From a virus, in UHGV virus genome UHGV-0256613: a DNA stretch of 40,973 nucleotides. One strand, written 5' to 3'. Position 1 is the first letter of the stretch, and every line of letters starts with the position of its first letter. The position numbers were made by a program, and so were the translations under genes. The notes below the pieces were generated by a model. That model did no database searches and had not been told where the DNA came from. It was given only the letters and a program-made list of their open reading frames with translations. Shown here one piece after another: positions 3,788 through 38,098 of the stretch.

Positions 3788-4153
3788 CTAACGATCCATC
3801 TCTAGCTCAATTTCTAACATCATTAACATGCCATCAACTACACCTTCAGCCTTTTGCAATAAACGCCCAACCCAGCAATCAGAACGCCCATGTTTACGGG
3901 CAAGCGCCATAAACGTCATACCACCTACATAATAATCCACTAATAAATCGTGCAAATCGCTGTTGTTCTTTTTCAGGCGAGCCATGCATCCACAAATGAT
4001 CATCGCGTCATCGTCACAACATTGCGGGCGGGATTTTACTTTTGAAGGGATTAGTCCTTTAAATCCTGCAGCAATAGACGACCAAGTGACATCCTCGTGA
4101 TTATTTGCCACCCATGCCCCCCAACGTTCAAGAACCATTTGAATATCACGCAT
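3788..4153 (-). CDS. Q: late-gene antiterminator Q (QuuD / phage-21 Q-like)
   Basis: [33 protein letters not shown]...[18 protein letters not shown] matches recalled QuuD; GGAG SD before ATG at 4153. ORF track extends to 4168 (TTG). Confidence 0.85.
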
Positions 4154-4170: not shown

Positions 4171-5166
4171 TCAGGCCAGCACGCCAATTGCCAGCGCACG
4201 ATCGATAAAACGAAATATCAGCTCCAGCTGGGAGCCATACTTCTCTTCAAATGCCACGGTATCCGCATGCAGCTCGTCGTGATGCTTTCTGCACAAAGGC
4301 AACACAAAAAGGTCATGCGCTTTTGTTCCCATTCCACCCTGACCGTGACCTATCAGGTGGTGGGGATCATCAGCGGGCTTTCCACAACATGCACACGGCT
4401 GTGTCTTAACCCAGCGCGTGTACTTTTCATTAACCCAGCGGCGACGTTTTGGGCGTAACATAAAAGACTCCGGCGACTCCGGATCCACTTTCAGCGCCAG
4501 CACCTTTTTCGCCTTATCCTGGATGATGCTGGTGGCAGGAACCGAAGGCACAAGGTCACTTTCCCGGGTAACAGACGGCACAACAGGCTTCGGTAATCTC
4601 AGTGCCTTACGGGCTGCACTTTCCGGTAAGGCATCCGCCAGATCATTACGAATCAGCCACCAGCACAGTTCCGGCATTGTCACAACGTGACTGTCATCAA
4701 AACCGAGATCCCGACGCACAACAGACAACACCCAGCGGGCACAGTTATCCGTTGCCATTGATTCCAGCCGTTCCGTGAACTGATCGCGCAGCTGGTTATC
4801 GCAGTGCCAGCACAGACGGATTGCACCCGGAGCGTGTCGCATTGTGGTCATGTTCTCGCTGTGCCAGTCGGAATGAGGCCACTGGCAGCCTTTTTCACGA
4901 AGTAACCAGCTTTCAAGACATTCCACGCCACCAGCACGACGGATCACTGCCTCATTGCGGAACACGGCCCGAACGGCAGGATCATCCGCCAGCGGTTGTG
5001 ATGCCGCCGGAACGGCACCACTGGCGAAAGATGAATAACGTTCCGGCTCAGGCTCCAGCAGGACACGCCCCTGCATAAACAGGGGCATCAGCTCTGAACC
5101 TGGCCTGAACAATACGATCCCCATACGCGGGGCAATTTCAGGGGTCAGTAGTGCTCTCACGGTCAC
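4171..5166 (-). CDS. DUF968 domain protein (YdfU-like) with C-terminal HNH-like Cys/His motif
   Basis: 331 aa; C-terminus [21 protein letters not shown]...CRKHHDELH; typical nin-region location next to Q. Confidence 0.75.
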
Positions 5167-8901: not shown

Positions 8902-9730
8902 GACGATGCCCTCCGCTGATATTCAGGAGACGGTGAATATGAAAATTAGCCTTATCCGCCAGACGAATACGTTCAGCCTGCAAGTTAAGAAGGGTTTCTA
9001 CCAAAACCTGATGCGCCTGCGGATCCGAAAGAGTTACCTTGCGCAGAGCACGTAGTGCAGTTGTTACATAACTGAGTTTATGTAAGTCTTCATCATTCAG
9101 ACGAGAGAGGGCTGGGACAGTAGCCATGATGGCAGCCTCCGTATGCAATGGATAACTTCCACCACCGGAAACGCCAATTTCGCTGGTGGTGAACTGAGCA
9201 GGGTTGGCGTAACCGGCGCATACGGAAACCGGCGCACCTTTCGGTGCCCCCACCCAGCCCACCATAATTTGGGTATAGCTGAGTTGTAGCAACAAAAAAG
9301 ACGCTAACGCGCCAATTGTCGCCGTATGCAATTCCAGGACGCCAATCCCGACACCCACTTTATAAGGTGCCTGAACAGTGTAACGTCCCGGAATGGCAGA
9401 ATCAATGTGCTGGTGGTCCTTCACACTCAACAAAATCACGCCTGAATTTCCACAAAGGACTAAAGCACTCATGCGGGTAGTCTTTGCGAAGATAGATAAC
9501 GCGCTGTGTTTCTGGCTCCCAACGAATAACATGGACATAAAGCCCTCTTCCGTCACGAAACCAGCGGTTAAGTTCCTGCACAACTCGCCCCCCACAGTCA
9601 GGTAAAGTTCTCTGTGGTTACTTACAGCCAGGTGATTTGGTAATCTGCATTCATGCCGTAACAACAGGTGTTCAGCGACGCTGACCACCAGCTGTTGCGA
9701 CAAACGGTTATTTGCCGTTAAACTGTTCAT
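8894..9730 (-). CDS. hypothetical protein (start uncertain; alternative ATG at 9265)
   Basis: 278-aa ORF whose ATG overlaps the CII-like stop (ATGA); the N-terminal 155 aa are not convincingly protein-like, and an internal ATG at 9265 gives MVGWVGAPKGAP..., matching the 28-codon relic at 38016-38098. Confidence 0.4.
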   Translation of the reverse strand: MNSLTANNRLSQQLVVSVAEHLLLRHECRLPNHLAVSNHRELYLTVGGELCRNLTAGFVTEEGFMSMLFVGSQKHSALSIFAKTTRMSALVLCGNSGVILLSVKDHQHIDSAIPGRYTVQAPYKVGVGIGVLELHTATIGALASFLLLQLSYTQIMVGWVGAPKGAPVSVCAGYANPAQFTTSEIGVSGGGSYPLHTEAAIMATVPALSRLNDEDLHKLSYVTTALRALRKVTLSDPQAHQVLVETLLNLQAERIRLADKANFHIHRLLNISGGHRHA

Positions 9731-10522: not shown

Positions 10523-10612
10523 ACAATATGTACCTCCGATGTACATATTACATGATTGAGATGAACCTTCAAGATACTTGTACCCTATCGGTACAAAGGT
10601 TTTAATTTCGTT
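10523..10612. promoter_or_regulatory. cI/cro divergent operator-promoter region
   Basis: Two palindromes with 5-nt spacers: ATGTA-catat-TACAT (10539-10553) and TTGTACC-ctatc-GGTACAA (10578-10596) between divergent cro and cI starts. Confidence 0.5.
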
Positions 10613-11287
10613 ATGAAAACAGTCCATGACATCCGGCGGTCTAACGCCAGAAAACTGAGAGATGGTGTTGGCGGGAATTCTTCCTTTGCCACCATGATTG
10701 ATCGCGAGCCAACCCAGACCAGCAGGTTTATGGGAGATGGTGCTACTAAAAATATCGGTGACAGCATGGCACGGCACATCGAAAAATGTTTCGACCTGCC
10801 TGTCGGATGGCTTGATCAAGAACACCAGACAACAAACATCACAAAAAAACCTGATGTTTCAATTACTAACAAACAAATAACGTTAGTCCCTGTCATATCA
10901 TGGGTACAGGCCGGAGCATGGAAAGAAGTTGGCTATTCTGAGGTTGATTTGAGCACAGCAGAAACTTATCCCTGCCCTGTACCCTGTGGCGAAATGACTT
11001 ATATCTTGCGGGTGATTGGTGATTCAATGATTGATGAGTACCGCCCGGGAGACATGATTTTTGTTGATCCTGAAGTCCCTGCCTGCCACGGTGACGACGT
11101 TATTGCATTGATGCACGATACAGGCGAAACCACCTTCAAGCGGTTGATAGAAGATGGAACACAGCGTTACCTCAAAGCATTAAACCCAAACTGGCCTGAA
11201 CCTTACATTAAGATCAACGGTAATTGCTCTATAATTGGTACAGTGATTTTCTCAGGAAAACCAAGAAGATACATAATAAAGGCCTAA
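10613..11287 (+). CDS. cI: CI-type repressor (HTH plus LexA-like S24 peptidase domain)
   Basis: 224 aa; C-terminal autocleavage-type domain (VIGDSM...DMIFVDPEV...GDDVIAL); divergent from cro. Confidence 0.85.
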   Translation: MKTVHDIRRSNARKLRDGVGGNSSFATMIDREPTQTSRFMGDGATKNIGDSMARHIEKCFDLPVGWLDQEHQTTNITKKPDVSITNKQITLVPVISWVQAGAWKEVGYSEVDLSTAETYPCPVPCGEMTYILRVIGDSMIDEYRPGDMIFVDPEVPACHGDDVIALMHDTGETTFKRLIEDGTQRYLKALNPNWPEPYIKINGNCSIIGTVIFSGKPRRYIIKA

Positions 11288-11300
11288 TCAATATTTATAA

Positions 11301-11321
11301 CCTGCTTCGGCAGGTTTTTTT
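11301..11321 (+). terminator. rho-independent terminator after cI
   Basis: CCTGC-ttcg-GCAGG hairpin followed by TTTTTTT. Confidence 0.7.
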
Positions 11322-11407
11322 ATACTTGACAATGTACCCTTGGGATACATAATGTATCTAAAAGAAACACAACACAGGCAAGATTAAACAAAATTTGGTT
11401 GTAACAC

Positions 11408-11757
11408 GGCGTATGGCACATGCGTCGTTAGCGGTCTGGGGACGTTAAAGGGGACAATCCACTCCTTGCTCGGGCAAACAAACCAGGTAGCCGGAATGTG
11501 CAAGTCAATGATGATGCTGATAAGACGCCTAACCAGCGTGGCGATCCGGTTTGACGCCTGGGAAGAGACCAGGGTGCAACGATGAGGGTATTTATGGAGC
11601 CGCGACAAAGTGTGGTGCCGTAACTGGCTAAGTGCTCTCAGCGTTGTGGTAATCCGCGAAATGGCGCGGCGGTAAGTATGGCGGGGTTACTCTTTCCCCG
11701 TTGAGGACACCGGATTGTCAGGTTGACCATACGCCTGAGTGACAACCCCACCACAAC
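11408..11757 (+). ncRNA. candidate structured RNA, left copy (conserved ~240-nt module plus a 115-nt multi-stem 3' domain)
   Basis: 11408-11650 is homologous to the reverse complement of 18574-18829; no plus-strand ORF; UCGG tetraloop hairpin CUUGC-UCGG-GCAAG; stem CCUGG/CCAGG covaries with CCUCG/CGAGG in the other copy; 3' domain closed by GTTGTGG(11643-11649)/CCACAAC(11751-11757) with nested hairpins. Confidence 0.4.
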
Positions 11758-11953
11758 AGCCACTGCTTTGGCGGTACCAGTTTGTACACTTGCTTCCGGC
11801 TGGTACCGCTCTTTTTACAAAACAGAGAAGAGCATCACCGGACGACGGGCTCATAACCCAATCCATCCGGGCGGCTGCCACCGCAGGTGTTCTTCTCTGT
11901 TTTGTGGAGAAACTAATCGGCCTTGCAGGGTCGATATGATGAGGAGCAACAAA

Positions 11954-12316
11954 ATGGCTAGCGAACGCAGTACTGATGTGCAGGCATTTATCGGGGAGCT
12001 GGACGGCGGCGTATTTGAAACAAAAATCGGCGCAGTTCTCAGTGAAGTCGCTTCCGGTGTGATGAACACGAAAACCAAAGGTAAGGTCTCACTCAACCTG
12101 GAAATCGAACCATTTGATGAGAACCGTGTGAAAATCAAACACAAACTCTCATATGTTCGCCCGACTAACCGCGGGAAAATTTCCGAAGAAGACACCACCG
12201 AAACGCCGATGTATGTCAATCGCGGTGGTCGCCTGACTATTCTGCAGGAAGACCAGGGACAATTACTGACTCTTGCCGGTGAACCTGACGGAAAACTCCG
12301 CGCAGCAGGTCGTTAA
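11954..12316 (+). CDS. YfdP-like hypothetical protein
   Basis: 121 aa from ATG with GAGGAG SD; MASERSTDVQAFIGELDGGVFETKIG...; first gene of a YfdP/Q/R/S-like block. ORF track extends upstream to 11723. Confidence 0.6.
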   Translation: MASERSTDVQAFIGELDGGVFETKIGAVLSEVASGVMNTKTKGKVSLNLEIEPFDENRVKIKHKLSYVRPTNRGKISEEDTTETPMYVNRGGRLTILQEDQGQLLTLAGEPDGKLRAAGR

Positions 12317-14224: not shown

Positions 14225-15003
14225 TGACCACATTTACCAATAAAGAACTGATTAAAGAAATCAAAGAACGAATCAGCAGCCTAGAGGTTCGAGACGATAT
14301 TGAGCGCCGTGCTTATGAAATTGCTCTGGCATCGCTAGAAGAGGAGCCGGTGGCATGGCTGCATTCAGAAAATGGCTTAGGTATTCCGGCAATAACGAGG
14401 AGTAAAAACATTGCTGACAGTTGGTTATCAAAGGGCTGGTATGTTCAGCCGCTATATATAGCCAAGCCAGTGCCGGTAGTGCCAGATGCTCGTCCGTCTT
14501 TAAATAATGGCATAGTCGGTTTTGATGAAGGCTGGAACGCCTGCCGCGCCGCCATGCTTCATGGTGCCAAACCTGTAAACCAAACTTACAAGTCACCACA
14601 CACGCTGTTTGAACAAGTTGCTGACCTCTACGAAATGCAATTTGATGACGGTCGCACTTGTGCCTTTCACACTGATGCGCAAAAGGCTGCGCAATGGCTT
14701 CAGGTGTGCGACGGAAACAGGGTTCAGGAATACGTTAAGCTGGAACGGCTGCAGAACGCGCTGTCTGGCAACTCTCCGGTAAGTCCGGGTGGTTGGATAA
14801 GCTGTAGTGAGCGAATGCCGAACGATAAACAGTATGTTTGGTGTTGGGGTAAGTCTTACGGCTGGACTGAGTGCGATACCTTCGAAGGGTATTACGATTG
14901 GTCGAGAAACAAATGGTGGGCAGTTACTGACGATGGGGAAGAACCGGCATCGAAAGTAACCCACTGGATGCCGCTACCAGAACCGCCGCAGGAGGTGAAG
15001 TGA
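14224..15003 (+). CDS. hypothetical protein with C-terminal DUF551-like domain
   Basis: 259 aa; C-terminus ...WCWGKSYGWTECDTFEGYYDW...VTHWMPLPEPP. Confidence 0.65.
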   Translation: MTTFTNKELIKEIKERISSLEVRDDIERRAYEIALASLEEEPVAWLHSENGLGIPAITRSKNIADSWLSKGWYVQPLYIAKPVPVVPDARPSLNNGIVGFDEGWNACRAAMLHGAKPVNQTYKSPHTLFEQVADLYEMQFDDGRTCAFHTDAQKAAQWLQVCDGNRVQEYVKLERLQNALSGNSPVSPGGWISCSERMPNDKQYVWCWGKSYGWTECDTFEGYYDWSRNKWWAVTDDGEEPASKVTHWMPLPEPPQEVK

Positions 15004-15125
15004 TGAACAAGTGCAACGCTCTGCTTTATGCCATGGTGATTGGTTTCGGCCTGGTTGCTGGTATCCGGGTTTATATTACCTGGGAGTCATTAATCAATCT
15101 GGCGTGGAGTGCGATTCGTGGCTAA
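15003..15125 (+). CDS. possible small hydrophobic membrane peptide (40 aa)
   Basis: ATG overlaps the upstream stop (TGATG); MNKCNALLYAMVIGFGLVAGIRVYITWESLINLAWSAIRG; not in ORF track (below size cut-off). Confidence 0.3.
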   Translation: MNKCNALLYAMVIGFGLVAGIRVYITWESLINLAWSAIRG

Positions 15126-15420
15126 ATCCCCCGCAGAACGCAAAGCCGCGCAGCGCGCTCGGCAGTCCGCCGCCGGTGAGCGCAAAATTGAACTGGTGCT
15201 GGATAAGCAGGAGCAGGAAATGCTGGCGCGGAACTGCGCCGCCCGGCGCCCTGGTCGCGATCCCTATGAAATGGCCGAGTACATCGCGCTGCTGATCCGC
15301 CAGGATGATGCACGTGTGCGCGGGCGTATAAAATCGATCAGCAGAAACTTTGCGGTAAGTGCGGCGAGAGAGTTCCCGTTAATTCATGCCCGTGTAATGG
15401 TGACTCGCAATGCTGGGTGA
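15109..15420 (+). CDS. hypothetical basic protein
   Basis: 103-aa ORF with GTG start, Arg/Ala-rich; last gene before the terminase leader. Confidence 0.45.
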   Translation: MRFVAKSPAERKAAQRARQSAAGERKIELVLDKQEQEMLARNCAARRPGRDPYEMAEYIALLIRQDDARVRGRIKSISRNFAVSAAREFPLIHARVMVTRNAG

Positions 15421-15451
15421 CTAAAGGCTGGCATGAAACGAAATTAATAGT

Positions 15452-15463
15452 GTGACATGTCAC
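15452..15463. promoter_or_regulatory. perfect 12-bp palindrome GTGACATGTCAC upstream of the terminase operon (second copy at 36061-36072)
   Basis: Exact palindrome; both copies are immediately followed by an intrinsic-terminator hairpin. Confidence 0.4.
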
Positions 15464-15504
15464 GAGTAGATTATGCATGATGAATTTGATGGGTTTTGAA
15501 TACT

Positions 15505-17640: not shown

Positions 17641-18246
17641 TTAAGCAGCATTGTCTGTGTTGCGATTGTTCCTTGAGTTAAACTTATTTGCAATTCTGGT
17701 ATTGGATTTTATTTTTTCTTCTGCAAGTTCTTTTTCAAGCGCCATTATTTTTTCAATAAGGGAATCTCTTTCCTGCAAAAAAGAATTCAAAGACTCTTGG
17801 TGCTTGATTAAATCATTTTTATAGAATTGAATCTCAGACTCAAACTCAACCTTAACTCTGTCGTATGTAATGTCCCTTTGTGCCTCAAGCTTACGCAATT
17901 CTATGGCGTTTTTAACATCCCTGAGGCTTTTGTTGTGTTTGAAGTTATCGATGTTCTGTAGTGGAATTTTTTGAAACATCACCACTATATTGTTAAACCA
18001 TGGAACTATTACACACAGCGCGAATGCACATAAAGCTGGATATAAGAGTGAGTGGTACGCATCACTATGGGAAGATATATAATTTATTTTTTCTTCAATT
18101 CCTGACTTACTGAAGAATAAAAATAATAGTGGATTCCAGTTAAAAGAACACCACGAAAACACAAATGCCCCAAGTGCTGGGTTGCGGACTCTCTCTGACG
18201 CTGTGCTAATAGCCGATGATGCGATCTCTTTAAATTGCTCGAACAT
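17641..18246 (-). CDS. membrane protein with C-terminal coiled-coil (moron), unknown function
   Basis: 201 aa; AT-rich; two hydrophobic segments then a charged helical region (ELRKLEAQRDITYDRVKVEFESEIQFYKNDLIKHQESL...); convergent with the terminase genes. Confidence 0.65.
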   Translation of the reverse strand: MFEQFKEIASSAISTASERVRNPALGAFVFSWCSFNWNPLLFLFFSKSGIEEKINYISSHSDAYHSLLYPALCAFALCVIVPWFNNIVVMFQKIPLQNIDNFKHNKSLRDVKNAIELRKLEAQRDITYDRVKVEFESEIQFYKNDLIKHQESLNSFLQERDSLIEKIMALEKELAEEKIKSNTRIANKFNSRNNRNTDNAA

Positions 18247-18278: not shown

Positions 18279-18293
18279 TTACCTTCAAGGTAA
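18279..18293. promoter_or_regulatory. TTACC-N5-GGTAA palindrome (copy 1 of 4)
   Basis: TTACCttcaaGGTAA ~30 nt upstream of the minus-strand moron gene start at 18246. Confidence 0.4.
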
Positions 18294-18309: not shown

Positions 18310-18333
18310 AAAAAAATGCCCGGCGAACCGGGC
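18310..18333 (-). terminator. rho-independent terminator downstream of the minus-strand tRNA
   Basis: On minus strand GCCCGG-uucg-CCGGGC followed by a T7 run. Confidence 0.55.
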
Positions 18334-18496
18334 GAACTGGAAGCAATGAGTTATGCCTTCCGTGGCTGTACTGGTTTACAGCATGAAGTCATCGCAATGG
18401 CGTCCTGCTGTAAAAAGGGCGGTGATAGTCCTTCAAGGGAAACAGTCACCGCCAATCCCCTGGAACTTCTGGCATCACGGTCCTTAGGCGTGATTC

Positions 18497-18573
18497 TGGC
18501 GTGGCATGCAGGATTCGAACCTGCGACCAACCGCTTAGAAGGCGGTTGCTCTGTCCAACTGAGCTAATGCCAC
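18497..18573 (-). tRNA. tRNA-Arg (anticodon UCU), phage-encoded
   Basis: Minus-strand GTGGCATTAGCTCAGTTGGACAGAGCAACCGCCTTCTAAGCGGTTGGTCGCAGGTTCGAATCCTGCATGCCACGCCA folds as a cloverleaf: 7-bp acceptor, D-arm GCTC/GAGC, anticodon loop CUUCUAA, T-loop TTCGAAT, encoded CCA; acceptor stem differs from recalled host argU. Confidence 0.9.
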
Positions 18574-18829
18574 AACGCTGAGAGCACTGGTTTGGCTCGA
18601 TATCAGGTAGGGTGGAACAGCCCGCTAATATCCAATGCTCTCATCGTTGTACCCTCGTCTCTTCCGAGGCGTCACACCGAATCGCCGGGATGGTGAATCC
18701 CCGTGCGCGGAATAAAACCGCTCGACTTGCACATTCCGGCTACCTGGTTCGTTTGCCCGAGCAAGGGAGGGTGCCCCTTAAACGTATCCAGACCGCTATC
18801 GTCGCATGTGCCATACGCCGTACTGCTCA
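18574..18829 (-). ncRNA. candidate structured RNA, right copy, directly 5' of tRNA-Arg
   Basis: Reverse complement is homologous to 11408-11650 with conserved flanks and a diverged central hairpin region; the conserved 3' block AGTGCUCUCAGCGUU abuts the tRNA 5' end. Confidence 0.4.
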
Positions 18830-18902
18830 AAATAAAAGCTCACTCCACCTGTTCAATTTAACGACAAGCCAGTCAGGTTAGTAACCGGAATGAACTCTTT
18901 GG

Positions 18903-18917
18903 TTACCTTAAAGGTAA
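18903..18917. promoter_or_regulatory. TTACC-N5-GGTAA palindrome (copy 2 of 4)
   Basis: TTACCttaaaGGTAA between the right RNA element and the small ORF/portal operon. Confidence 0.4.
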
Positions 18918-19007
18918 TAATTCGTGCATTAAATGTCAACTGTCTACGATAAATAAATCATATGTGGTTAAATTGGTAATAATTTAATTGCGTACGGAGT
19001 CATTGAT

Positions 19008-21913: not shown

Positions 21914-22900
21914 ATGTCTGTTAAAGGCTTAACTGCGCTAACGCTGGCTGACTGGGGTAAGCGCGTCGATCCAAATGGGAAAGTCGATAAGATTATCGAG
22001 CTTCTCAATCAAACTAACCCAATTCTTCAGGATATGCCTTTTGTTGAAGGAAACCTTCCTACCGGACACCGAACCACCATTCGTTCTGGTTTACCTTCTG
22101 CTACCTGGCGTTTGCTGAACTATGGCGTACAGCCAAGCAAATCAACCACAGTGCAGGTCACCGATTCCATTGGCATGCTGGAAACCTATGCTGAAGTCGA
22201 TAAGTCTCTGGCTGATCTGAACGGTAATACTGCCGAATTCCGTCTGTCTGAAGACCGAGCATTTATTGAAGCGATGAATCAGGCGATGGCGCAGACACTG
22301 TTTTACGGTGATTCCAGCGTTAACCCTCAGCAGTTTATGGGACTGTCCTCCCGCTATTCCAGCCTGTCTGCGGGTAATGCTCAGAACATCATTGATGCTG
22401 GTGGCACGGGTACAGATAACACTTCAATCTGGTTAGTGGTGTGGGGCGAAAACACCGTGCATGGCATCTTCCCGAAAGGACAGAAGGCTGGCATTCAGAT
22501 GGAAGATAAAGGCCAGGTGACACTGGAAGATGCTAAAGGCGGCAAGTACGAAGGTTATCGTACCCATTATAAGTGGGACAACGGGCTGACATTACGTGAC
22601 TGGCGCTATGTAGTTCGTATCGCAAACATTGATGTCAGTAATCTTGACGCTCCTTCTACTGCCGCGAATATCGCAAAACTGATGATTCGTGCCCTTCATC
22701 GAATCCCAAATCGTGGGATGGGACGTCCTGTTTTCTACATGAACAGAACCATTAACGAAGTGCTTGACCTGCAATCTCTGGAGAAGAGTTCTCTGGCGAT
22801 CAGCGTGAAAGAGACAGAAGGCGAATGGTGGACAGCACTTCGTGGTGTGCCGATTCGTGAAACTGACGCACTTCTGGAAACAGAAGCCCGCGTGGTGTAA
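21914..22900 (+). CDS. major capsid protein
   Basis: 328 aa; follows the scaffold gene; strong SD (AGAGGAGA). Confidence 0.8.
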   Translation: MSVKGLTALTLADWGKRVDPNGKVDKIIELLNQTNPILQDMPFVEGNLPTGHRTTIRSGLPSATWRLLNYGVQPSKSTTVQVTDSIGMLETYAEVDKSLADLNGNTAEFRLSEDRAFIEAMNQAMAQTLFYGDSSVNPQQFMGLSSRYSSLSAGNAQNIIDAGGTGTDNTSIWLVVWGENTVHGIFPKGQKAGIQMEDKGQVTLEDAKGGKYEGYRTHYKWDNGLTLRDWRYVVRIANIDVSNLDAPSTAANIAKLMIRALHRIPNRGMGRPVFYMNRTINEVLDLQSLEKSSLAISVKETEGEWWTALRGVPIRETDALLETEARVV

Positions 22901-22951
22901 CGCCTGTTATTAACCTGTGGGCCGCAACAGGCCCACTAATGGAGAAAGAAG

Positions 22952-23389
22952 ATGATCACCGACAAACTGTTGATGTTCTCCGAAGCACAGGCGGTAACTG
23001 ATACCGCGGCTTCTACTGACGTAATCGATCTCGGTCCAATTGACGGAAACCGTCGCGATATCGGTGTGGGTTACCCGCTTGAGTTTTGGGTGCTGGTTAA
23101 CGAAGCCGCCACGGCAAGTGGTGAGGCAACTGTAAACATCCAGTTGCAGACGAGTGAGAATAACAGCTCATGGTCCACTATTTATGATAGTGGCGCACTG
23201 GCAAAGGCCACCCTGACAGCAGGTAAGCGAGTTGTTTCTGCAAAGGTGCCTGCCGGTGTTCAGCGATATCTGCGTGTTAACTACTCCGTCGCAACTGGCC
23301 CACTAACGGCTGGCAAATTCACTGCGGGTATCAATCTTGATGTTGATGCCAATACGCCGTATCCGATCCGCTCAAAAGTAACTGGTTAA
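22952..23389 (+). CDS. hypothetical virion protein
   Basis: 145 aa; strong SD; within structural operon. Confidence 0.6.
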   Translation: MITDKLLMFSEAQAVTDTAASTDVIDLGPIDGNRRDIGVGYPLEFWVLVNEAATASGEATVNIQLQTSENNSSWSTIYDSGALAKATLTAGKRVVSAKVPAGVQRYLRVNYSVATGPLTAGKFTAGINLDVDANTPYPIRSKVTG

Positions 23390-23390
23390 G

Positions 23391-23735
23391 GTGATATTGA
23401 TGTCAGGTGAGAAACCAAGATACCGCGTTCTGCGCCTCTCTCATATCCATAACACTCTGTGGCCGGAGGGGGCAGAAATCGAATACGAAGGTGAGCCTGG
23501 TAGCGCACTGGAACCTGTTAACGATGCAGCCAGACAGGCAAAAGCAAAAGTTGCAGGAAAGGTGTCAATGGCAGCAACCAGCACCAAAATCATCAACGAT
23601 GTGTCAGATGATGGTGAACTGGATAAGCTCCGTGAAGAGTACGAATTGCTCTTTAACGAGAAGCCACACCATAACGCCAAAGCCGAAACGCTCCGCGAGA
23701 AGATCGCAGATAAGCGTAAAGAACTGGGCGTGTAA
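23391..23735 (+). CDS. hypothetical virion protein
   Basis: 114 aa; tightly coupled to the preceding gene; followed by a terminator. Confidence 0.6.
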   Translation: MILMSGEKPRYRVLRLSHIHNTLWPEGAEIEYEGEPGSALEPVNDAARQAKAKVAGKVSMAATSTKIINDVSDDGELDKLREEYELLFNEKPHHNAKAETLREKIADKRKELGV

Positions 23736-23752
23736 GCCTCGCGAATCAGACA

Positions 23753-23773
23753 AGGGGCTTCGGCCCCTTTATT
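23753..23773 (+). terminator. rho-independent terminator after the capsid gene block
   Basis: AGGGGC-ttcg-GCCCCT followed by TTATT; position analogous to T7 T-phi. Confidence 0.65.
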
Positions 23774-23791
23774 GCAGGAGTATAGAAACTT

Positions 23792-24397
23792 ATGGCCTCT
23801 GTAGTAGAGATCTGCAATCGTGCGCTGTCCAATATTGGCAACAGCCGCAGTATTAACAGCCTGACGGAAGCCAGCAAGGAAGCGGGGGAATGTTCGCTGC
23901 ACTTTGAGGCCTGCCGTGATGCTGTGCTTTCTGATTTTGACTGGAACTTTGCTACCAAACGCGTGGCGCTTGCAGATACGAGCAATCCACCGCCTGACTG
24001 GGAATATGCGTACCAGTACCCGTCCGATTGTCTGCGCATTACTGAAATTATGCTTCCTGGTGTACGCAATCCAACAGCAGCAATGCGCGTTCAGTACGAA
24101 GTTGGTGCAGACACCAACGGAACAGGAAAGTTGATCTACACAGACCAGCCGCAGGCATGGCTCAAGTATGTATCTCGCGTTTCAGATGTGAACATGTTTG
24201 ATGCCATTTTTATGGAGGCGTTGGCCTGGCGTCTTGCGGCAGCCATTAACATGGCGCTGACTGGGAATGCAGACCTCGGTACGTTTGCCCTCAATATGTA
24301 CAATCGCGTGATTCTTAGTGCTGGCTCGCATAGCCAGAATGAATCACAGGAACCACAGCCACCGGTTGACGAGTTTACCATTGCGAGGTTGTCCTGA
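23792..24397 (+). CDS. tail tubular protein A (T7 gp11-like)
   Basis: 201 aa; size, position and N-terminal pattern (..NRALSNIG..SINSLTE..) resemble T7 gp11. Confidence 0.6.
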   Translation: MASVVEICNRALSNIGNSRSINSLTEASKEAGECSLHFEACRDAVLSDFDWNFATKRVALADTSNPPPDWEYAYQYPSDCLRITEIMLPGVRNPTAAMRVQYEVGADTNGTGKLIYTDQPQAWLKYVSRVSDVNMFDAIFMEALAWRLAAAINMALTGNADLGTFALNMYNRVILSAGSHSQNESQEPQPPVDEFTIARLS

Positions 24398-26868
24398 TGG
24401 CTATCAGTTGGATCCAGCCCAGCTTTGCCGGTGGTGAGATTGGACCGTCGTTGTACGGACGTATCGACATGGCGAAGTACCAGGTGGCATTGCGCAAGTG
24501 CGATAACTTTATCGTGCGGCAGTATGGCGGCGTTGAGAATCGACCAGGTACGCGTTTTGTCGGTGCCGCAAAATACCCAAATCGGAAATGCCGCCTGATC
24601 CCGTTCCAGTTCTCGACGGTTCAGACCTATGCTCTGGAGTTCGGACACCAGTACATGCGCGTTATCAAAGATGGTGCGTTGGTGCTGAACAGCAGCAATG
24701 TTATTTATGAAATTGCCACGCCATATACTGAAGCCGATCTGTTCCGAATTAAATTCACGCAAAGCGCCGACGTGCTTACGCTGGTTCACCCGGCATACCC
24801 GCCGAAAGAGTTGCGCCGCTACGCGCATGACAACTGGCAACTGGTTGATGTGGTAACGAAGAACGGGCCATTTGAAGATATCAATATTGACGAGTCAGTG
24901 ACGGTTTATGCCAGCGCCAGCACCGGGACAATTACGTTAACGGCAAGCGCCTCTATTTTTGGCGCGGAGCAGGTAGGCAAATTGTTCTATCTGGAACAGC
25001 CTGCAGTGGATTCAGTGCCGGTATGGGAAACCAGTAAGAGTACGTCGATTGGCGATATTCGCCGTGCAGACAGTAATTACTATCGCGCCGTTACAGCAGG
25101 CAAAACAGGCACTTTGCGCCCTTCGCATACAGAAGGCACATCATGGGATGGCTGGGGCGGCTCCGGTGATGATGATACTGGCATTGAGTGGGAGTATCTG
25201 CACAGTGGTTTTGGCATTGCCCGTATCACTGCTGTAAACGGCACTACTGCAACTGCCGAGGTGATTTCCTATATCCCTTCGCAGGTCGTTGGCGAGGATA
25301 ATGCCAGCTATAAATGGGCTAAATATGCCTGGAACAGTGTTAATGGTTATCCTGGCACTGTTGTTTATTATCAACAACGTCTTTACTTCGCCGCATCGAC
25401 TGCGTTCCCTCAGACTATCTGGGCCAGCCGTACCGGGGATTATAAGGATTTTGGCAAAAGCAATCCTACGCAGGATGACGACAGAATTATCTACACCTAT
25501 GCCGGGCGTCAGGTTAATGAGATCCGCCACCTGATTGATGTTGGTTCGCTGGTGGCGCTGACTTCCGGAGGTGAGTACGTCATCACCGGCGACCAGAACA
25601 AAGTGTTAACCCCATCATCATTTGCATTCAGCTCTCAGGGATCAAATGGCTCAAGCAACGTCCCACCAATTGCTGTGGCGAATATTGCTCTGTTCGTCCA
25701 GGAGAAAGGCAGTGTTGTCCGTGATCTGGCCTACTCATTCGATGTTGACGGCTATCAGGGGAACGACCTTACTATCCTTGCCAATCATCTTTTTCAGAAG
25801 CACAGCATTGTTGACTGGTGCTTCTCTATTGTCCCTTACTCCAGCGCCTTCTGCATTCGTGATGACGGTAAATTACTGGTGATGACCTATTTGCGTGATC
25901 AACAGGTTTTTGCATGGGCACCACAGTCCAGTACCGGAAAATATGAAAGCACATGCAGTATCAGCGAAGGCAATGAAGATGCGGTGTATTTCGTCATTAA
26001 CCGAACCGTTAACGGGCAAACAGTGAGATACATCGAGCGACTGTCCAGCCGTTTATTTACCAGCGATGAAGATGCTTTCTTTGTTGATTCTGGCCTTAGC
26101 TATGATGGAAGAAATACGTCTGACAGAACGATGACCATCACTGGTGGTTCTGGTGAATGGGATTACCGTGCGGAATATACAATCAGTGTTTCTGGTGGTG
26201 CGTACTTCACCAGTAGTGATGTCGGCGCGCAACTACAGTTCCCTTATACCGGAACTGATCCTGATACTGGCGATGAAGTGTCAAAAGAATTACGTTGCGA
26301 CATTATTTCTGTAACCAGCAATACCGCAGTAGTGGTTCGTGCTAACAGGAACGTCCCGCCATCCCTCAGGAATGTGGCCACCACGAACTGGCAGATGGCG
26401 CGCCGGACATTTGGCGGCTTGTCTCATCTTGAAGGCCAGACCGTAAACATCCTCTCTGATGCGAACGTGGAACCACAAAAAGTGGTTTCCGGAGGTGCCG
26501 TCACGCTGGAATCACCGGGGGCTGTTGTGCACATCGGCCTGCCAATAACTGCTGAATTCGAAACACTGGATATCAACATTAACGGACAGGAAACGCTGCT
26601 GGACAAAAAACAGGTGATCCCGTCCGTTACTCTGGTTGTGAATGCCAGTCGCGGCATCTGGGCGACTACGCCCGGCGGTAAATGGTACGAATATCCACAG
26701 CGTGAATTCGAGTTCTACGATGATCCTGTTGATGATGCTACCGGAAAAGTAGAAGTGAAGCTGGACAGTAACTGGGGCAAAAACGGGCGTGTAAAAATCC
26801 GTCAGCTTGACCCGTTGCCGCTGTCTGTTCTTGCCGTTATTCCTCGCCTTACTGTTGGGGGATTCTGA
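24397..26868 (+). CDS. tail tubular protein B (T7 gp12-like)
   Basis: 823 aa; overlapping start; size and order match T7 gp12. Confidence 0.65.
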   Translation: MAISWIQPSFAGGEIGPSLYGRIDMAKYQVALRKCDNFIVRQYGGVENRPGTRFVGAAKYPNRKCRLIPFQFSTVQTYALEFGHQYMRVIKDGALVLNSSNVIYEIATPYTEADLFRIKFTQSADVLTLVHPAYPPKELRRYAHDNWQLVDVVTKNGPFEDINIDESVTVYASASTGTITLTASASIFGAEQVGKLFYLEQPAVDSVPVWETSKSTSIGDIRRADSNYYRAVTAGKTGTLRPSHTEGTSWDGWGGSGDDDTGIEWEYLHSGFGIARITAVNGTTATAEVISYIPSQVVGEDNASYKWAKYAWNSVNGYPGTVVYYQQRLYFAASTAFPQTIWASRTGDYKDFGKSNPTQDDDRIIYTYAGRQVNEIRHLIDVGSLVALTSGGEYVITGDQNKVLTPSSFAFSSQGSNGSSNVPPIAVANIALFVQEKGSVVRDLAYSFDVDGYQGNDLTILANHLFQKHSIVDWCFSIVPYSSAFCIRDDGKLLVMTYLRDQQVFAWAPQSSTGKYESTCSISEGNEDAVYFVINRTVNGQTVRYIERLSSRLFTSDEDAFFVDSGLSYDGRNTSDRTMTITGGSGEWDYRAEYTISVSGGAYFTSSDVGAQLQFPYTGTDPDTGDEVSKELRCDIISVTSNTAVVVRANRNVPPSLRNVATTNWQMARRTFGGLSHLEGQTVNILSDANVEPQKVVSGGAVTLESPGAVVHIGLPITAEFETLDININGQETLLDKKQVIPSVTLVVNASRGIWATTPGGKWYEYPQREFEFYDDPVDDATGKVEVKLDSNWGKNGRVKIRQLDPLPLSVLAVIPRLTVGGF

Positions 26869-27332
26869 TGGTCGATGTTCAAATTATTCCCGCTACCGAA
26901 GAGCATCTTCAGATGATTTTGCCGGATGTTCGTCAGGCTGATATTGACGAACTGTATGCGGTATCGCTGATGACTACCGAAGATGCGCTGCGTGTTGGTC
27001 TGCGCACTGCGACTATGGCCTGGTCAGGATTTGCGAACGGAGAACTGGTAACCATGTTTGGCGTATCTCCGGCGTCAATGATCGGTGGCAATGGTACGCC
27101 CTGGCTGGTAGGAACCAGCCGTATTGAAAAATATCAGAAGACATTTCTGCGCCACTGCCGCCCTGTATTGCAGCAGATGCTGGCAGTTTATCCGCGCCTG
27201 GAAAACTACGTCGACGAGCGAAACCATGTTGCCAAAGCATGGCTGCACTGGCTTGGATTCAGGCTTGAAGAAGCCGCGCCTTATGGTGCTCTTGGTCTTA
27301 ATTTCCACAGATTTCACATGGAGAGAAAATAA
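26868..27332 (+). CDS. internal virion protein (gp13 position)
   Basis: 154 aa; ATGA-coupled. Confidence 0.55.
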   Translation: MVDVQIIPATEEHLQMILPDVRQADIDELYAVSLMTTEDALRVGLRTATMAWSGFANGELVTMFGVSPASMIGGNGTPWLVGTSRIEKYQKTFLRHCRPVLQQMLAVYPRLENYVDERNHVAKAWLHWLGFRLEEAAPYGALGLNFHRFHMERK

Positions 27333-27895
27333 TGTGCGATCCGGTTATTGCTGGTGGCGCAATGCTCGCCATGAGTGGCATTCAGGCATACACCCAGTAC
27401 CAACAGGGAAGGTATGCCTCGAAGGTTGCAGAAGCGAACGCAGATATAGCCACAGCTCAGGCAAATGATGCAATAAACAGGGGTAACGCTGAAGCTGAGC
27501 AACGGCGCAGAGAGACCCGACAGCGGCTTGGTACACAGGCGGCGACAATGGGGGCTACCGGTGCGGAATTAAGTAGCGGAACAGCTCTTGACGTTTTTGC
27601 GGATAATGCTCAGTTCGGCACTCTTGATGCGTTAACGACAGTGAATAATGCTCAGCGTGAGGCATATGGGTATCAGGTTCAGGGAATGAATGCTCAGGCA
27701 CAGGGGGCTGCTGCTCAGTCGGCTGCTAAATCATCGATGACCAGCACTTTGTTAACGGCACCACTAAAAGCATACGGTGCATATAAGTTGGGTAGCGGAA
27801 GTATCAATCCGATTAGTAAGCAAGGAAACACGCCAATGTTATCTAACTCAGGTTTTATGAATTCTGACTCCCGATTCAAAATAGGAGGTTACTGA
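27332..27895 (+). CDS. internal virion protein (gp14 position)
   Basis: 187 aa; hydrophobic N-terminus, Ala/Gln-rich. Confidence 0.55.
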   Translation: MCDPVIAGGAMLAMSGIQAYTQYQQGRYASKVAEANADIATAQANDAINRGNAEAEQRRRETRQRLGTQAATMGATGAELSSGTALDVFADNAQFGTLDALTTVNNAQREAYGYQVQGMNAQAQGAAAQSAAKSSMTSTLLTAPLKAYGAYKLGSGSINPISKQGNTPMLSNSGFMNSDSRFKIGGY

Positions 27896-30612
27896 TGCCT
27901 GTTGTTCCTACTACATCCGGACGTCAGGTTGAGAGTCGTGGTGTGCAAACCGGTGGTTTTCAGACCTTCGATGTTCCTCAAGCAGGTCAGGTGCTGGCGA
28001 ATGTCGCAGATCAGTATGCGGTGGCATATGGTGAAGCCAGGCAGAAAGCGAATGTTGCATTGTCTCAGGATGCCATCCTTCAGCTTAATCAGCGCAGCAA
28101 TGAACGTCTTTATAACCCTCAAACCGGTTTTTATGCACAACAAGGCAAAAATGCGATTGGTAAGGGGCAAGAGTACATATCTGGATTTGATCAGGATGTG
28201 GAAGAAATAGCTGCTTCATTGACTGATGAAGCAGCAAGAAATATGTTTTTGCAACAAGCCAGAACACAGAAAATTCAGTTCAGTACTGGAGTTCTCAGAC
28301 ATGAGATAGGGCAGACAAATGCCTATGAAGATGAGCAATATCAGGCAACGAGAAAATTATGGATACAAAATGAAGCGGATGCCTGGAATGACCCGCAAAC
28401 TGCCACTTTAGCCAGAAATTCCAGAATGGTAGCCATTGCCAGATATGGAGCAGCCAGGGGATGGTCACAAGAACGCATTCTGGAAGAAATAGAAAGTGAT
28501 GATCGCAGTGCCACAGAAATGCGGGCGAAGAATTATGCCGCTGCTAATCCGGAAGGATGGTTAAATGGTCAGTTTCAGAAAAATGATTCTGGAGGCATGG
28601 ACATGCGTGCCATACGCCTTGTTGAATCAGGTGATCGTCATTTTAATCCTGATGGTAGTATTCTTGAAGGACCGAAAACATCTTCTGGAGAGAGGGCCCA
28701 GGGGAAATACCAGTTAATGCCGGGCACAGGGAAAGAACTGGCGGCCAAACGTGGCGTTGAATACAACCCTACGGACGAACAACAGCATGAAATGCTTGCC
28801 AGTGACTATGTAAATCAACTGTATGGTAAGTACGGCTCCGAAATATTGGCCGGAGCAGCATATAACTGGGGGATGGGTAACGTGGATAAACTGATCGCCA
28901 AAGTCGGTGATCCACGTAAAGGTGAAATATCAGAAGAAGAATTTATCCGAAATCTTCCATCAGAAACACAAGGGTGGCTTTCCCGATATAGAAAAAATAA
29001 AACTGGAATGGATCCGCTGACTATTTATCAAATAGATAACCTTGCTAATAGTCAGATAGAAAAGCAAAGGAAGTTAATATTAGAACAGCTTGAGCCAGCT
29101 ATTAATAACACCATGGCCCAGCTATATAACGGTGAGGTTCCAGATTATATACCGGCTCAGGAGACCATCATCAGGGGGTATGGAAAAAACGCAGATAAAA
29201 TAATCAATCAACTGGATATAGCGATTGATAACGCGAGAATATTCCAGGCAATTCAGTATTTGCCTCCTTCTCAGCAGCAAGAAGAAATGCAGAAAGTGAA
29301 GCCTGAGGTTAACGATCCTCACTATGCGTTAAAACTCGATGCTTACGGAAAATTGTCTGCATTGCTTCAGAGATCAAATGAAGCAATTCAGGCGCAACGG
29401 GATTCACGCAGATTCAATGAGGCGCTGACAATAGGTGAAAAATTAGACCCAAGCAACAAGTCAATGCAGAAAGCTGCTGATTACACAGAAATGGCGCAGA
29501 ACTTTCGTATTAATGATGTCTCCACTCATGATGGGGTTGTTCGGCTTGTGGCTCAGACTGGCATAATGCCTTCGCAGGTCATCACGCAGCTTTCAGCAGT
29601 ATCCCGATCCAGCAATCAGGAAGTGGTTAAAAATGCGGCGGAACTGTTTAGTCGGTTATATGAAACAGACAATGCATCTATTGGAAATATGCCGAAGGAT
29701 ATGCAGGGTTTTTATCTGACTGTTAAGCAACTAACTGATTCTGGCATGTCTGCTGATGTGGCTATCGAGCAGGCGCAGAACCTTACGTACAACCAGACCG
29801 ATGCTCTTAAAGCTCAATTGGCATCAACGCAGAGTTCAAAAGAGTACAAAAATGATCGCAGCAAGGCGATGAATTCTGCTGTCAGCAATATGGCGCAGTG
29901 GTTCCGTTGGGATCCGTCTGCGGATGACCAGACGCCGGAAGCAGCTAGATTCCGTAATGACTATCAGACGATGTATGACATTAACTACCGCGTTGCTGGT
30001 GGTAACGCTGACGTAGCGAAGCAAATGACCAACCAGCAGATAGCCCGCACTTGGAGTATCAGCGAGGTTAACGGAGAAGCGCAGTTTATGAAATATGCAC
30101 CGGAGGCGCTTTATCAATATGGGCCGTCAGGCTGGCAGGCGGCGCAGTGGAAAGCTGAAAAAGAACGGCTGATGTACGGTGAGCGCAAAGAGATTATAAC
30201 AACCAGTCCGACGTTGCTTGGGATCACGTCAGGTAATGCTCCTGTAGTTGAGACAAAAACCCCTGAGAGTCGTATTAATGGAGAATTATTCATAACCCCT
30301 GACGTGTTAACACCCCGTAATGGTGATTACGCCATTATGGTAAGAACTAAGGATGAAAATGGCATCGATCGGGTCCAGCCGTTTTATAACAAACATGGGC
30401 GTCCTATGCGTTGGGAACCATCACTAGAAGATTGGGAACCTTATAAGAAAATGCAGCAGGAACGGGAGCAGTACGAGCAGGAAGAAATTATGCGTGGACA
30501 GGCTATACGAAACTTCAAAGACAAGCATCGCGCTCTGGATGAGCAGTATCAGCGCCTGCATAACGAACGTATGGACAAATTTAAAGATTACTTTTCGTGG
30601 GGATCTAAATAA
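27895..30612 (+). CDS. internal virion/ejection protein with lytic-transglycosylase-like motifs
   Basis: 905 aa; segment VESGDRHF...GKYQLMPGTGKEL...AAYNWGMGNV resembles SLT-domain motifs. Confidence 0.7.
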   Translation: MPVVPTTSGRQVESRGVQTGGFQTFDVPQAGQVLANVADQYAVAYGEARQKANVALSQDAILQLNQRSNERLYNPQTGFYAQQGKNAIGKGQEYISGFDQDVEEIAASLTDEAARNMFLQQARTQKIQFSTGVLRHEIGQTNAYEDEQYQATRKLWIQNEADAWNDPQTATLARNSRMVAIARYGAARGWSQERILEEIESDDRSATEMRAKNYAAANPEGWLNGQFQKNDSGGMDMRAIRLVESGDRHFNPDGSILEGPKTSSGERAQGKYQLMPGTGKELAAKRGVEYNPTDEQQHEMLASDYVNQLYGKYGSEILAGAAYNWGMGNVDKLIAKVGDPRKGEISEEEFIRNLPSETQGWLSRYRKNKTGMDPLTIYQIDNLANSQIEKQRKLILEQLEPAINNTMAQLYNGEVPDYIPAQETIIRGYGKNADKIINQLDIAIDNARIFQAIQYLPPSQQQEEMQKVKPEVNDPHYALKLDAYGKLSALLQRSNEAIQAQRDSRRFNEALTIGEKLDPSNKSMQKAADYTEMAQNFRINDVSTHDGVVRLVAQTGIMPSQVITQLSAVSRSSNQEVVKNAAELFSRLYETDNASIGNMPKDMQGFYLTVKQLTDSGMSADVAIEQAQNLTYNQTDALKAQLASTQSSKEYKNDRSKAMNSAVSNMAQWFRWDPSADDQTPEAARFRNDYQTMYDINYRVAGGNADVAKQMTNQQIARTWSISEVNGEAQFMKYAPEALYQYGPSGWQAAQWKAEKERLMYGERKEIITTSPTLLGITSGNAPVVETKTPESRINGELFITPDVLTPRNGDYAIMVRTKDENGIDRVQPFYNKHGRPMRWEPSLEDWEPYKKMQQEREQYEQEEIMRGQAIRNFKDKHRALDEQYQRLHNERMDKFKDYFSWGSK

Positions 30613-35011: not shown

Positions 35012-35083
35012 AACAGCGAAGCCCAACGGTGGCCAGACCGTCAGGGCTTCAGTATCGTAAAACTACGTATAGGAATTAACGAC

Positions 35084-37273: not shown

Positions 37274-37520
37274 TCAGAAGAACCCTGCTTTGTCGTTGAT
37301 GTACTCCGCGTGCGTCTGGATATCACGCAGGCATTTGCTCACACCGACGATGTAGCAGAACATGGTGGTCAACTCCGCCGCCGCGCCCGATACGTCGTGC
37401 CCGTCTTCCTGTAACTGGTTTAGCAGATTCATCAGCAGTGAGTTCTCCGTCAGGCCGAGAACACCAGACGGCGAATGAATCAGGCTGCGGTAGCCGGGCT
37501 TCAGTGGGGCGCTGTAGGTT
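37274..37520. repeat. right arm of ~245-bp inverted repeat (antirepressor C-terminal coding region)
   Basis: Near-identical to reverse complement of 35780-36022. Confidence 0.8.
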
Positions 37521-37966: not shown

Positions 37967-38015
37967 AGCGATCACCTTTGTAGTTAGGTTAATCACCACC
38001 GCTGAGACCAATCAG

Positions 38016-38098
38016 ATGGTGGTGAACTGTGCAGAGTTGGTCTTACCGGCTACAAAGGAACCCGGCGCACCTTTCGGTGCCCCCACACAGCCCACCAT
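38016..38098. repeat. diverged duplicate of 9184-9266 (leader/N-terminal module with GNRA hairpin)
   Basis: ggtggtgaactg..cccggcgcacctttcggtgcccccac..cagcccaccata shared by both loci; here encodes only a 28-codon relic (MVGCVGAPKGAPGSFVAGKTNSAQFTTI*) upstream of the Bro-N antirepressor. Confidence 0.7.

Follow-up and report, generated by a model that had tools for sequence, protein, structure and literature searches.

What would two diverged copies of one nucleotide sequence do in a single phage genome, and how would they come to lie there 7 kb apart and convergent? The question is raised by the virus genome UHGV-0256613, whose 40,973 nucleotides, at their full length, we refer to here as the window, and in which an earlier note, made from the letters alone, had described two inverted stretches as candidates for a structured RNA; all the elements of that description were found where it had placed them, or within 1–2 nt. 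Positions 11407–11649 of the plus strand and 18820–18574 of the minus strand are two diverged copies of one non-coding structured RNA, belonging to a widespread family of pseudoknotted phage RNAs of about 170–240 nt, which family is undescribed as far as Rfam 15 and the literature searched show. The kind of element that it resembles most, the cis-acting phage leader RNA at the early-left promoter PL, is a known one, the fold being unrelated to that of the known examples.

Upon aligning the two copies we recovered the long identical blocks around diverged centres that had been noticed before, namely GGCGTATGGCACATGCG, CCTTGCTCGGGCAAAC, the 25-nt ACCAGGTAGCCGGAATGTGCAAGTC, GGAAGAGAC, CAACGATGAG, and AGTGCTCTCAGCGTTGTGG. 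The 19-mer GGTAGCCGGAATGTGCAAG has only two sites in the window, which sites are the two copies themselves, with none expected by chance. An exact scan of IMG/VR for that 19-mer supplied the homologs—at least 120 loci, with about 100 distinct variants among the matches listed—and the core alignment, A3, comprises 84 distinct sequences. The covariance model built from A3, here called R1, found exactly two matches in the window, the two cores. The parts of both copies are the following (window coordinates, strand, feature):

11407–11582, plus: core of the left copy (R1, 164.9 bits, E = 3e-48)
11407–11427, plus: left P1
11432–11493, plus: left P2
11486–11504, plus: left near-invariant 19-mer
11525–11539, plus: left P4
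11531–11534 with 11548–11551, plus: left pseudoknot strands (read from the sequence)
11557–11573, plus: left P5
11576–11646, plus: left P6 with its variable insert (5' strand 11576–11592, 3' strand 11630–11646; covariation in 54 sequences)
18644–18820, minus: core of the right copy (R1, 164.9 bits, E = 3.1e-48)
18820–18800, minus: right P1
18744–18726, minus: right 19-mer
18732–18703, minus: right P3
18701–18687, minus: right P4
18678–18675, minus: right pseudoknot partner GGUG (read from the sequence)
18669–18653, minus: right P5
18573–18650, minus: right P6 with its insert, the last base overlapping the first base of a transfer RNA (tRNA) (alignment and covariation in 54 sequences)

The functional core of the RNA is P1–P5, the length of which ranges from about 155 to 183 nt among the 84 homologs, with all three classes modulo 3 represented. 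P1 is a 9-bp hairpin; in P2 the base, CGGU/GCCG, is invariant and the inner stem covaries, closing a variable arm; and P4 is a 4-bp hairpin whose loop, CACC or AACC, pairs with a downstream GGUG or GGUU in an H-type pseudoknot. The core also contains a near-invariant single-stranded segment, GGUAGCCGGAAUGUGCAAG. Beyond the core, P6 is a long-range helix of CAACGAUGAGAGCAUU with AGUGCUCUCAGCGUUG that closes a variable insert and that, in a full-length alignment of 54 sequences, comprises 18 pairs, with 99.4% of the cells paired and five pairs changed on both sides; this helix is absent in the members of the type carried by phage P1 and in some members in which a gene follows directly after the core.

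Throughout the 84 distinct cores 96.9% of the cells at paired positions are in fact paired, and 12 pairs are changed on both sides, among them pairs of P5 and of the pseudoknot. The stem for which a compensatory change had been proposed is P5, where CCTGG-GAAGAGA-CCAGG (11557–11573) stands against CCTCG-GAAGAGA-CGAGG in the right copy, the column pair concerned being C-G in 42 and G-C in 35 of the 84 homologs. One pair of the pseudoknot is C-G in 64 sequences and A-U in 20, with zero breaks, and one pair of P1 is G-C in 62 and A-U in 22. The covariation score, 0.276, was reached in none of 500 shuffles, whose mean was 0.115, and compares with 0.02–0.05 when the 3' partners were slid; P1, P2, P4, P5, P6, and the pseudoknot covary well above these controls, and the proposal of compensatory pairing, made from a single stem, is supported. 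Of the 15 column pairs that emerged from a blind scan of all pairs, nine fell inside the proposed helices (one each in P1, P2, the pseudoknot, and the variable P2 arm, two in P4, and three in P5); the remaining six, all of them long-range, we judged to be probable lineage linkage. A second pseudoknot may exist in which the P1 loop GCACA would pair with the UGUGC of the 19-mer, a pairing that shows no covariation to judge by because both segments are near-invariant, which near-invariance persists even in a set of genomes selected on another part of the RNA. The alternative to it is the pairing P3 (GUGC with G[CU]AC), which exists in 47 of the 84 variants. Since the minimum-free-energy folds of the single copies are no better than those of shuffled sequences (z = -1.15 for the left copy and -0.89 for the right), the support for the structure comes entirely from the covariation among homologs. 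The two antisense open reading frames (ORFs) described earlier, at 11384–11608 on the minus strand and 18612–18881 on the plus strand, are both present; across the homologs we found no conserved reading frame, none being open in more than 30 of the 84, in agreement with a non-coding reading.

Known RNA families did not account for the element, which the earlier note had likewise matched to none. A scan of the whole window with Rfam 15 at gathering thresholds returned only two C4 RNAs, two isrK RNAs, one tRNA, and one sar RNA, while a scan of 11250–11960 with E values up to 10 gave only chance-level matches lying outside the element or on the wrong strand. The literature searched, on put-like RNAs, the trnI/ban region of P1, and structured-RNA surveys, nowhere describes the element, as far as we saw; the family could be mentioned in King et al. 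(2011), a paper outside that search.

The family is nevertheless common. The core is present in 1832 of 5426 complete Escherichia coli genomes (about 34%), in up to four places per genome, with 551 of the places on plasmids, and the element is carried by the model phage P1 and by epsilon15-like and Shiga toxin (Stx) phages, which breadth is one reason for its interest. The species-level genome scan, made with a pattern taken from a part of the RNA other than the 19-mer, gave true matches in the Enterobacteriaceae—Escherichia, Citrobacter, Klebsiella, Kosakonia, Phytobacter, Kluyvera, Enterobacter, Pseudescherichia, Superficieibacter, and Pseudocitrobacter—and in Candidatus Erwinia dacicola; six matches outside these groups scored about 10 bits or less and were taken as chance. 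A full-scoring copy (158.5 bits) was also observed at positions 1159–1318 of L151, a 1.75-kb contig labelled as a Bacillota metagenome-assembled genome (JAIIAN010000430.1), which contig is most likely a mis-binned fragment of an enterobacterial phage.

Among the records inspected none annotates the element as an RNA, and no feature is listed under any of the E. coli matches. Hypothetical coding sequences (CDSs) are instead annotated across the RNA or the domain 3' of it in phages Ayreon (L001, 9167–9286 and 9388–9582) and mEp460 (L159, 2462–2830 and 2872–3015); these, together with the two antisense ORFs of the window, are probably spurious because no frame is conserved, and the addition of the family to RNA libraries would correct such annotations. 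The frame PhiV10p04 (L004, 2672–2923) runs antisense across a stretch with a tRNA-Arg and a terminator, and stops 3 nt short of the RNA.

The surroundings of the left copy indicate where in the phage program the RNA is made, its neighbourhood being the following:

10613–11287, plus: gene of a cI-type prophage repressor (PHROG phrog_4, transcriptional repressor, E = 1.2e-48; annotated as repressor/cI in phage Ayreon)
11299–11323, plus: intrinsic terminator ending the cI transcript (AACCTGCTTCGGCAGGTT, then a T-run; an annotated terminator in Ayreon and SfV)
11326–11358, plus: PL-type early-left promoter, TTGACA-16 nt-CATAAT, overlapping operator-like sequences (11 of 12 consensus matches)
11643–11757, plus: cloverleaf-like 3' domain, perhaps tRNA-derived, closed by GTTGTGG/CCACAAC (minimum-free-energy fold with the closing stem and three hairpins, z = -0.96)
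11770–11816, plus: intrinsic terminator between the RNA and the first early-left gene (13-bp stem, GGCGGTACCAG.../...CTGGTACCGC, -20.8 kcal/mol, then TCTTTTT)
11817–11905, plus: very stable long hairpin with an outer stem of about 20 bp, just before the first gene (-45.5 kcal/mol)
11936–12316, plus: first early-left gene, YfdP-like, followed by yfdQ- and yfbR-like genes (phrog_204, phrog_210, phrog_318)

The -10 hexamer of PL ends at 11353 and the RNA begins at 11407. The operator-like TGTACCCTTGGGATACA at 11333–11351 resembles TGTACCCTATCGGTACA at 10578–10596, in the cI–cro intergenic region, and the palindrome GATACATAATGTATC at 11344–11358 likewise overlaps the PL region. Only this RNA and its 3' domain are transcribed ahead of the -20.8 kcal/mol terminator, and we saw no promoter-like site between the RNA and 11936, where the first early-left gene starts. 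We found no N gene in the early-left region of the window, nor is any annotated in the matching regions of Ayreon, Stx2a_WGPS2, and mEp460.

This order—cI-type repressor gene, terminator, PL-type promoter, RNA, one or more terminators, co-oriented early-left genes—is that of the majority of the contexts. Within 160 nt upstream of the RNA a sigma-70-like promoter site was present in 53% of the unique contexts versus 0–4% of the control windows, and within 555 nt downstream a terminator-like hairpin with a T-run was present in 86% versus 15–45%; a chain of co-oriented ORFs follows downstream in the representative contexts listed. A tandem arrangement was observed in L022, where two cores (3991–4152 and 4798–4957, both on the minus strand), about 650 nt apart and the second of them without the exact 19-mer, share a leader of about 1.5 kb.

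The right copy lies in a unit of another type, which resembles that of phage epsilon15 and is encoded on the strand opposite to its neighbours, terL on one side and the portal gene on the other. Its parts are these:

18903–18939, minus: promoter (TTGACA at 18939–18934, 17 nt, TACCTT), overlapped by the palindromic operator TTACCTTTAAGGTAA at 18903–18917 (read from the sequence)
18497–18573, minus: tRNA-Arg, anticodon UCU, abutting the 3' end of P6 (ARAGORN; Rfam tRNA model, 73.3 bits)
18474–18494, minus: conserved hairpin ATCACG-CCTAAGGAC-CGTGAT after the tRNA, recurring after the tRNA or tRNA-like domain in other phages
18412–18453, minus: terminator 1 of the unit (GGCGGTGA...TCACCGCCC, then TTTTT, -17.7 kcal/mol)
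18310–18333, minus: terminator 2 of the unit (GCCCGGTTCGCCGGGC, then ATTTTTTT)
17641–18246, minus: 201-aa gene of unknown function, 3' of both terminators (phrog_4780, no Pfam match)

A terminator homologous to that of the left copy is present here as well, and a second copy of the operator palindrome is located at 18279–18293, just upstream of the 201-aa gene, the position of which is occupied in phage phiV10 by a different gene. Of the two kinds of copy phiV10 has only the epsilon15-type one. The pair in the window is not a duplication inside one element, but two members of the family joined by mosaicism, a lambdoid PL leader on the one side and an epsilon15-type RNA–tRNA unit on the other; the mosaic composition of the window, lambdoid and then epsilon15-like, explains the presence of two members 7 kb apart and convergent. 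A junction was observed at about 15003–15500: the similarity to lambdoid phages (Ayreon, 2H10, and an Stx2c phage) ends near 15010, after an ea22-like gene, and epsilon15-like terS and terL follow on the same strand and then structural genes, so that the PL operon seems to continue directly into the packaging genes. The junction is spanned by no phage record.

The third context is that of P1 and P7, in which the core, without P6, lies within the 286 nt that are left unannotated between trnI (tRNA-Ile2) and ban, in the ban operon controlled by C1. In P1 the RNA is at 4163–4345 of L155 (NC_005856), corresponding to 71024–71206 of the record, 2.4 kb into the ban operon and just before ban. Upon knock-down by CRISPR interference, trnI and ban were scored as non-essential for P1vir (PMC10695390). 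In each of the three contexts the promoter ahead of the RNA bears an operator or is under repressor control, and we therefore take the RNA to be an immediate-early product.

What stands on the 3' side of the RNA varies in an orderly manner. Wherever P6 is present a GUGG follows, and then, according to the phage, either a genuine tRNA-Arg or an unrelated insert. The inserts are of several unrelated types, of about 100–130 nt, each ending in a complementary CCAC(C/A)AC; one type has a covarying D-arm-like hairpin and an anticodon-like loop, CUUUUAA, and others carry GGUUCGAUUCC T-arm fragments. At L011 (about 3850–3975, minus) and other loci we observed 3' domains resembling a tRNA mimic. The acceptor stem of these reads GUGGUGA/UCACCAC, their variable arm is long, the loop of the anticodon-like arm is CUUUUAA, and a hairpin resembling a D arm (GCGC or GCAC, AGGCUGAU, GCGC or GUGC) covaries; neither ARAGORN nor Rfam calls them tRNAs. 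A tRNA-Arg lies directly downstream in 28 of 125 instances, as the tRNA-Arg(UCU) at 18573–18497, whose position had been pointed out before, begins directly after the right copy; in 16 of the 125 a tRNA with the anticodon CAU, which in P1 is trnI, lies 16 nt upstream.

At that same position the left copy has the 115-nt domain of the earlier note, of which the 7-bp stem (11643–11649/11751–11757) and the three hairpins of the minimum-free-energy fold were recovered, while the fold as a whole proved no better than that of shuffled sequences. That domain was not recognised as a tRNA: ARAGORN finds only the tRNA-Arg at 18497–18573 in the window, and the Rfam tRNA model gives no match at E values up to 10; the related 3' domains at other loci likewise gave no Rfam tRNA match at E values up to 0.5. 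What the left domain keeps is only a cloverleaf-like outline and the GUGG...CCAC closing stem. We read it, from its outline, as one of several putatively tRNA-derived, cloverleaf-like 3' domains that hold the tRNA position in different phages, and these domains as probable decayed tRNA derivatives keeping an acceptor-like closing stem. An attractive inference would be that they also keep a cleavage site for RNase P, which site would define the 3' end of the upstream RNA; since these domains are not recognised as tRNAs, such cleavage is only inferred. A weak Methylophilales-1 match over the 3' domain was seen at L039 (2010–2105, minus; 29.7 bits, E = 0.064), below the gathering threshold.

The best explanation that we can propose for the RNA, and one that we advance tentatively, is that of a cis-acting antitermination leader that would work like the put or nut sites and yet be unrelated to them. 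According to this proposal, the RNA, transcribed from a repressor-controlled early promoter, folds into the compact pseudoknotted core P1–P5; the nascent RNA, either alone or with a host factor, would then make the transcribing RNA polymerase resist the terminators before the downstream genes, and in the lambdoid phages lacking N it would thereby fill the role of N/nutL in lambda and of putL in HK022. The case is positional and logical: in the early-left operons of lambdoid phages without N, the RNA alone precedes the first strong terminator, behind which stand genes without a visible promoter of their own. That the invariant unpaired nucleotides are maintained across heteroimmune phages and several host genera would fit a target in a conserved host machine such as RNA polymerase.

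The nearest parallel is the put RNA of HK022, which acts on RNA polymerase without a phage protein, suppressing both intrinsic and Rho-dependent terminators, and whose members are of about 70 nt with two stem-loops (PMC9378689). Like put, the left copy is non-coding and placed directly after the early-left promoter of a lambdoid phage without N, with terminators following, that is, in the location by which the put family is recognised. In contrast to put, the present RNA has a core of 155–183 nt with five helices and a pseudoknot, plus P6, and no second copy in the PR operon. Homology to HK022 put was rejected: with filters off R1 reached at best 0.8 bits in 27600–30200 of HK022, and with default filters nothing in 22000–30000. 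The putL-like antiterminator RNA of HK639 (NC_016158, 34187–34312, 126 nt), reportedly described by King et al. (2011), also follows a putative PL in a lambdoid phage and shares with this RNA a few short strings (CATGCGTCG, GGAAGAG, AACGAT), for which reason homology was suspected by eye; we rejected it upon finding no R1 match in HK639, the annotated feature included, with the filters off, and a local-alignment score of 18.0, which 176 of 500 shuffles (mean 17.0) also reached.

In lambda the slot between PL and the first early-left terminators is held by N/nutL, and thus by genomic position the two are alike. The 3' strand of P6 (11631–11645 in the window, and its homologs) reads GUGCUCUUUCCG or CGCUCUUUUUG in several variants, and in some UGCUCUUU, which strings resemble the boxA core GCUCUUU. 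Unlike in lambda, that boxA-like string is base-paired and covarying, no boxB-type hairpin motif is present, and no N-like gene accompanies the RNA. The eps-associated RNA (EAR) of Bacillus, which promotes readthrough of distal terminators, is another structured RNA inside an operon, as is the present one in the ban operon of P1; sequence, fold, and host phylum are unrelated, EAR having been compared only through the negative Rfam scan.

Several observations weigh against antitermination. In P1 and some other contexts a gene begins within 25–85 nt after P5, with no terminator in between. In an epsilon15-like relative (L099, 3420–4245) the unit is wholly non-coding: promoter and core are followed by P6 with a tRNA-like insert (GGTTCGATTCC), then by another helix of P6 type that goes with a tRNA-like domain, by a conserved hairpin, and by two terminators, after which comes the end of the convergent terL; since that unit holds no protein gene, there is nothing obvious to antiterminate into. 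SfV (L160, NC_003444, 2560–3230) is a natural core-less variant: cI, PL, the P6 3' end, the domain resembling a tRNA, the terminator, and the genes that follow have all been retained, and an unrelated insert of about 650 bp, which encodes orf33 (98 aa), takes the place of the core. SfV being a viable and inducible phage, the core would be dispensable there. We considered orf33 as an N-like replacement and rejected it, the sequence on reading being neither arginine-rich nor N-like. P6 with its tRNA or tRNA-like 3' domain looks, moreover, like a device for releasing a discrete RNA, and neither the R1 model nor alignment found any similarity to put RNAs.

The gene-less unit of L099, the core-less SfV, and the arrangement of P6 plus tRNA favour the main rival explanation, possible although doubtful in our judgement, in which the RNA would be a stable, processed early RNA acting in trans. 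RNase P would cut at the junction with the tRNA or tRNA-like domain, whereas in P1 the 3'-processing of the tRNA would serve; a discrete RNA of about 240 nt would result, its 3' end protected by P6, and the terminators, enriched as they are downstream, would merely end an RNA gene, which is how the two at the end of the L099 unit may be viewed. The target might be a conserved host component, for example RNA polymerase, an enzyme concerned with tRNA or translation, or a system of defence. The tRNA genes adjoining the RNA in a part of the instances, the right-copy tRNA-Arg that begins where P6 ends, and the retention of the GUGG...CCAC stem by unrelated inserts wherever P6 is present all speak for this explanation. 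So do precedents: RNase P matures the C4 RNAs of phages P1 and P7 and the CI RNA of P4, and an operon of the early-left type is the source from which DicF is processed. All of these are, like the present RNA, small RNAs in repressor-controlled early operons of temperate phages, and here too RNase P may be the maturing enzyme, as the adjoining tRNA or tRNA-like domain suggests; at L080 (802–854, minus), furthermore, a weak DicF-like match (27.7 bits, E = 0.06, below the gathering threshold) lies about 250 nt downstream of the element. C4, P4 CI, and DicF, however, are antisense regulators of 50–90 nt with known complementary targets, unlike the present RNA, which is larger and pseudoknotted, gives no match to the Rfam C4 and DicF models, and has in the window no complementary target for its 19-mer. 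The explanation is weakened further by the early-left genes that in the PL context lie behind the terminator without a visible promoter of their own, so that readthrough would still need explaining, by the contexts with a gene so close after P5 and no terminator, and by the failure of the 3' domains to be recognised as tRNAs.

An improbable third explanation is that of a sensor or catalyst, whether a riboswitch-like aptamer that would answer to a metabolite or a signalling molecule, a protein-binding site comparable to nut at which a phage or host factor would be recruited, or a self-cleaving ribozyme setting the ends of the transcript and thereby the expression downstream. A multi-helix pseudoknotted fold with many invariant unpaired nucleotides is what aptamers and ribozymes typically show, the position of the RNA is close to the promoter and ahead of terminators and genes, and in one context a gene for a Tad2-like anti-defence protein lies directly downstream. 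Nevertheless, the first terminator follows the core at a variable distance, about 100 to 350 nt or more, the space being taken up by unrelated inserts, and therefore no conserved expression platform overlaps the core; the downstream genes are heterogeneous across contexts, so that no common ligand logic emerges; and Rfam gave no riboswitch or ribozyme match. Membership in a riboswitch class was accordingly rejected, an aptamer with an overlapping expression platform and a consistent downstream function not being what these contexts display. Finally, that the conservation should stem from a small protein on either strand or from a DNA-level site (an operator array, or a site of recombination or replication) is most improbable: the antisense ORFs of 74 and 89 aa that overlie the two copies and the hypothetical CDSs annotated over the element in several phage records are what could be adduced for it, in the face of the absence of a frame open in most homologs, of indels that are not multiples of three, of compensatory substitutions in six helices, and of G-U pairs that are strand-specific.

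We regard as evenly poised the prospect that the core represents a new class of complex-folded functional RNA, whether a factor-independent antiterminator structurally unrelated to put, a polymerase-binding or anti-defence RNA released by RNase P, or a new riboswitch or ribozyme; in each of these cases it would be the first product of derepressed temperate phages, overlooked until now in P1, in Stx phages, and in a third of the sequenced E. coli genomes. The matter bears on how the many lambdoid phages without N achieve early antitermination, since in the phages examined this RNA occupies that slot. Were it to bind RNA polymerase, processive antitermination by means of an RNA would have arisen a second time, and independently; were it to act in trans, the RNA would represent an immediate-early phage product of a new kind. 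The well-supported pseudoknotted fold, together with the near-invariant nucleotides, is suited to structural and mechanistic work.

Some further features of the window concern the control of the right-hand unit and of the antirepressors. Palindromes of the family TTACC-N5-GGTAA have 11 matches in the window versus 0.71 expected, including sites at 18903–18917, 18279–18293, 38234–38248, 38359–38373, and 39683–39697, which overlap the right-copy promoter or lie upstream of the 201-aa ORF and of antirepressor genes. The motif looks like the operator of a repressor that would co-regulate the RNA unit and the antirepressors; an epsilon15-type repressor gene was sought next to these palindromes and not found, the neighbours being the antirepressors themselves. 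The two pairs of C4 antisense RNA and isrK (9182–9370 and 38015–38197, both on the minus strand) and the single sar RNA (35015–35082, minus) each adjoin a gene for an antirepressor, Ant (37274–38011, minus; 35084–36022, plus), and for this reason the phage possesses several RNA-controlled antirepressor modules.

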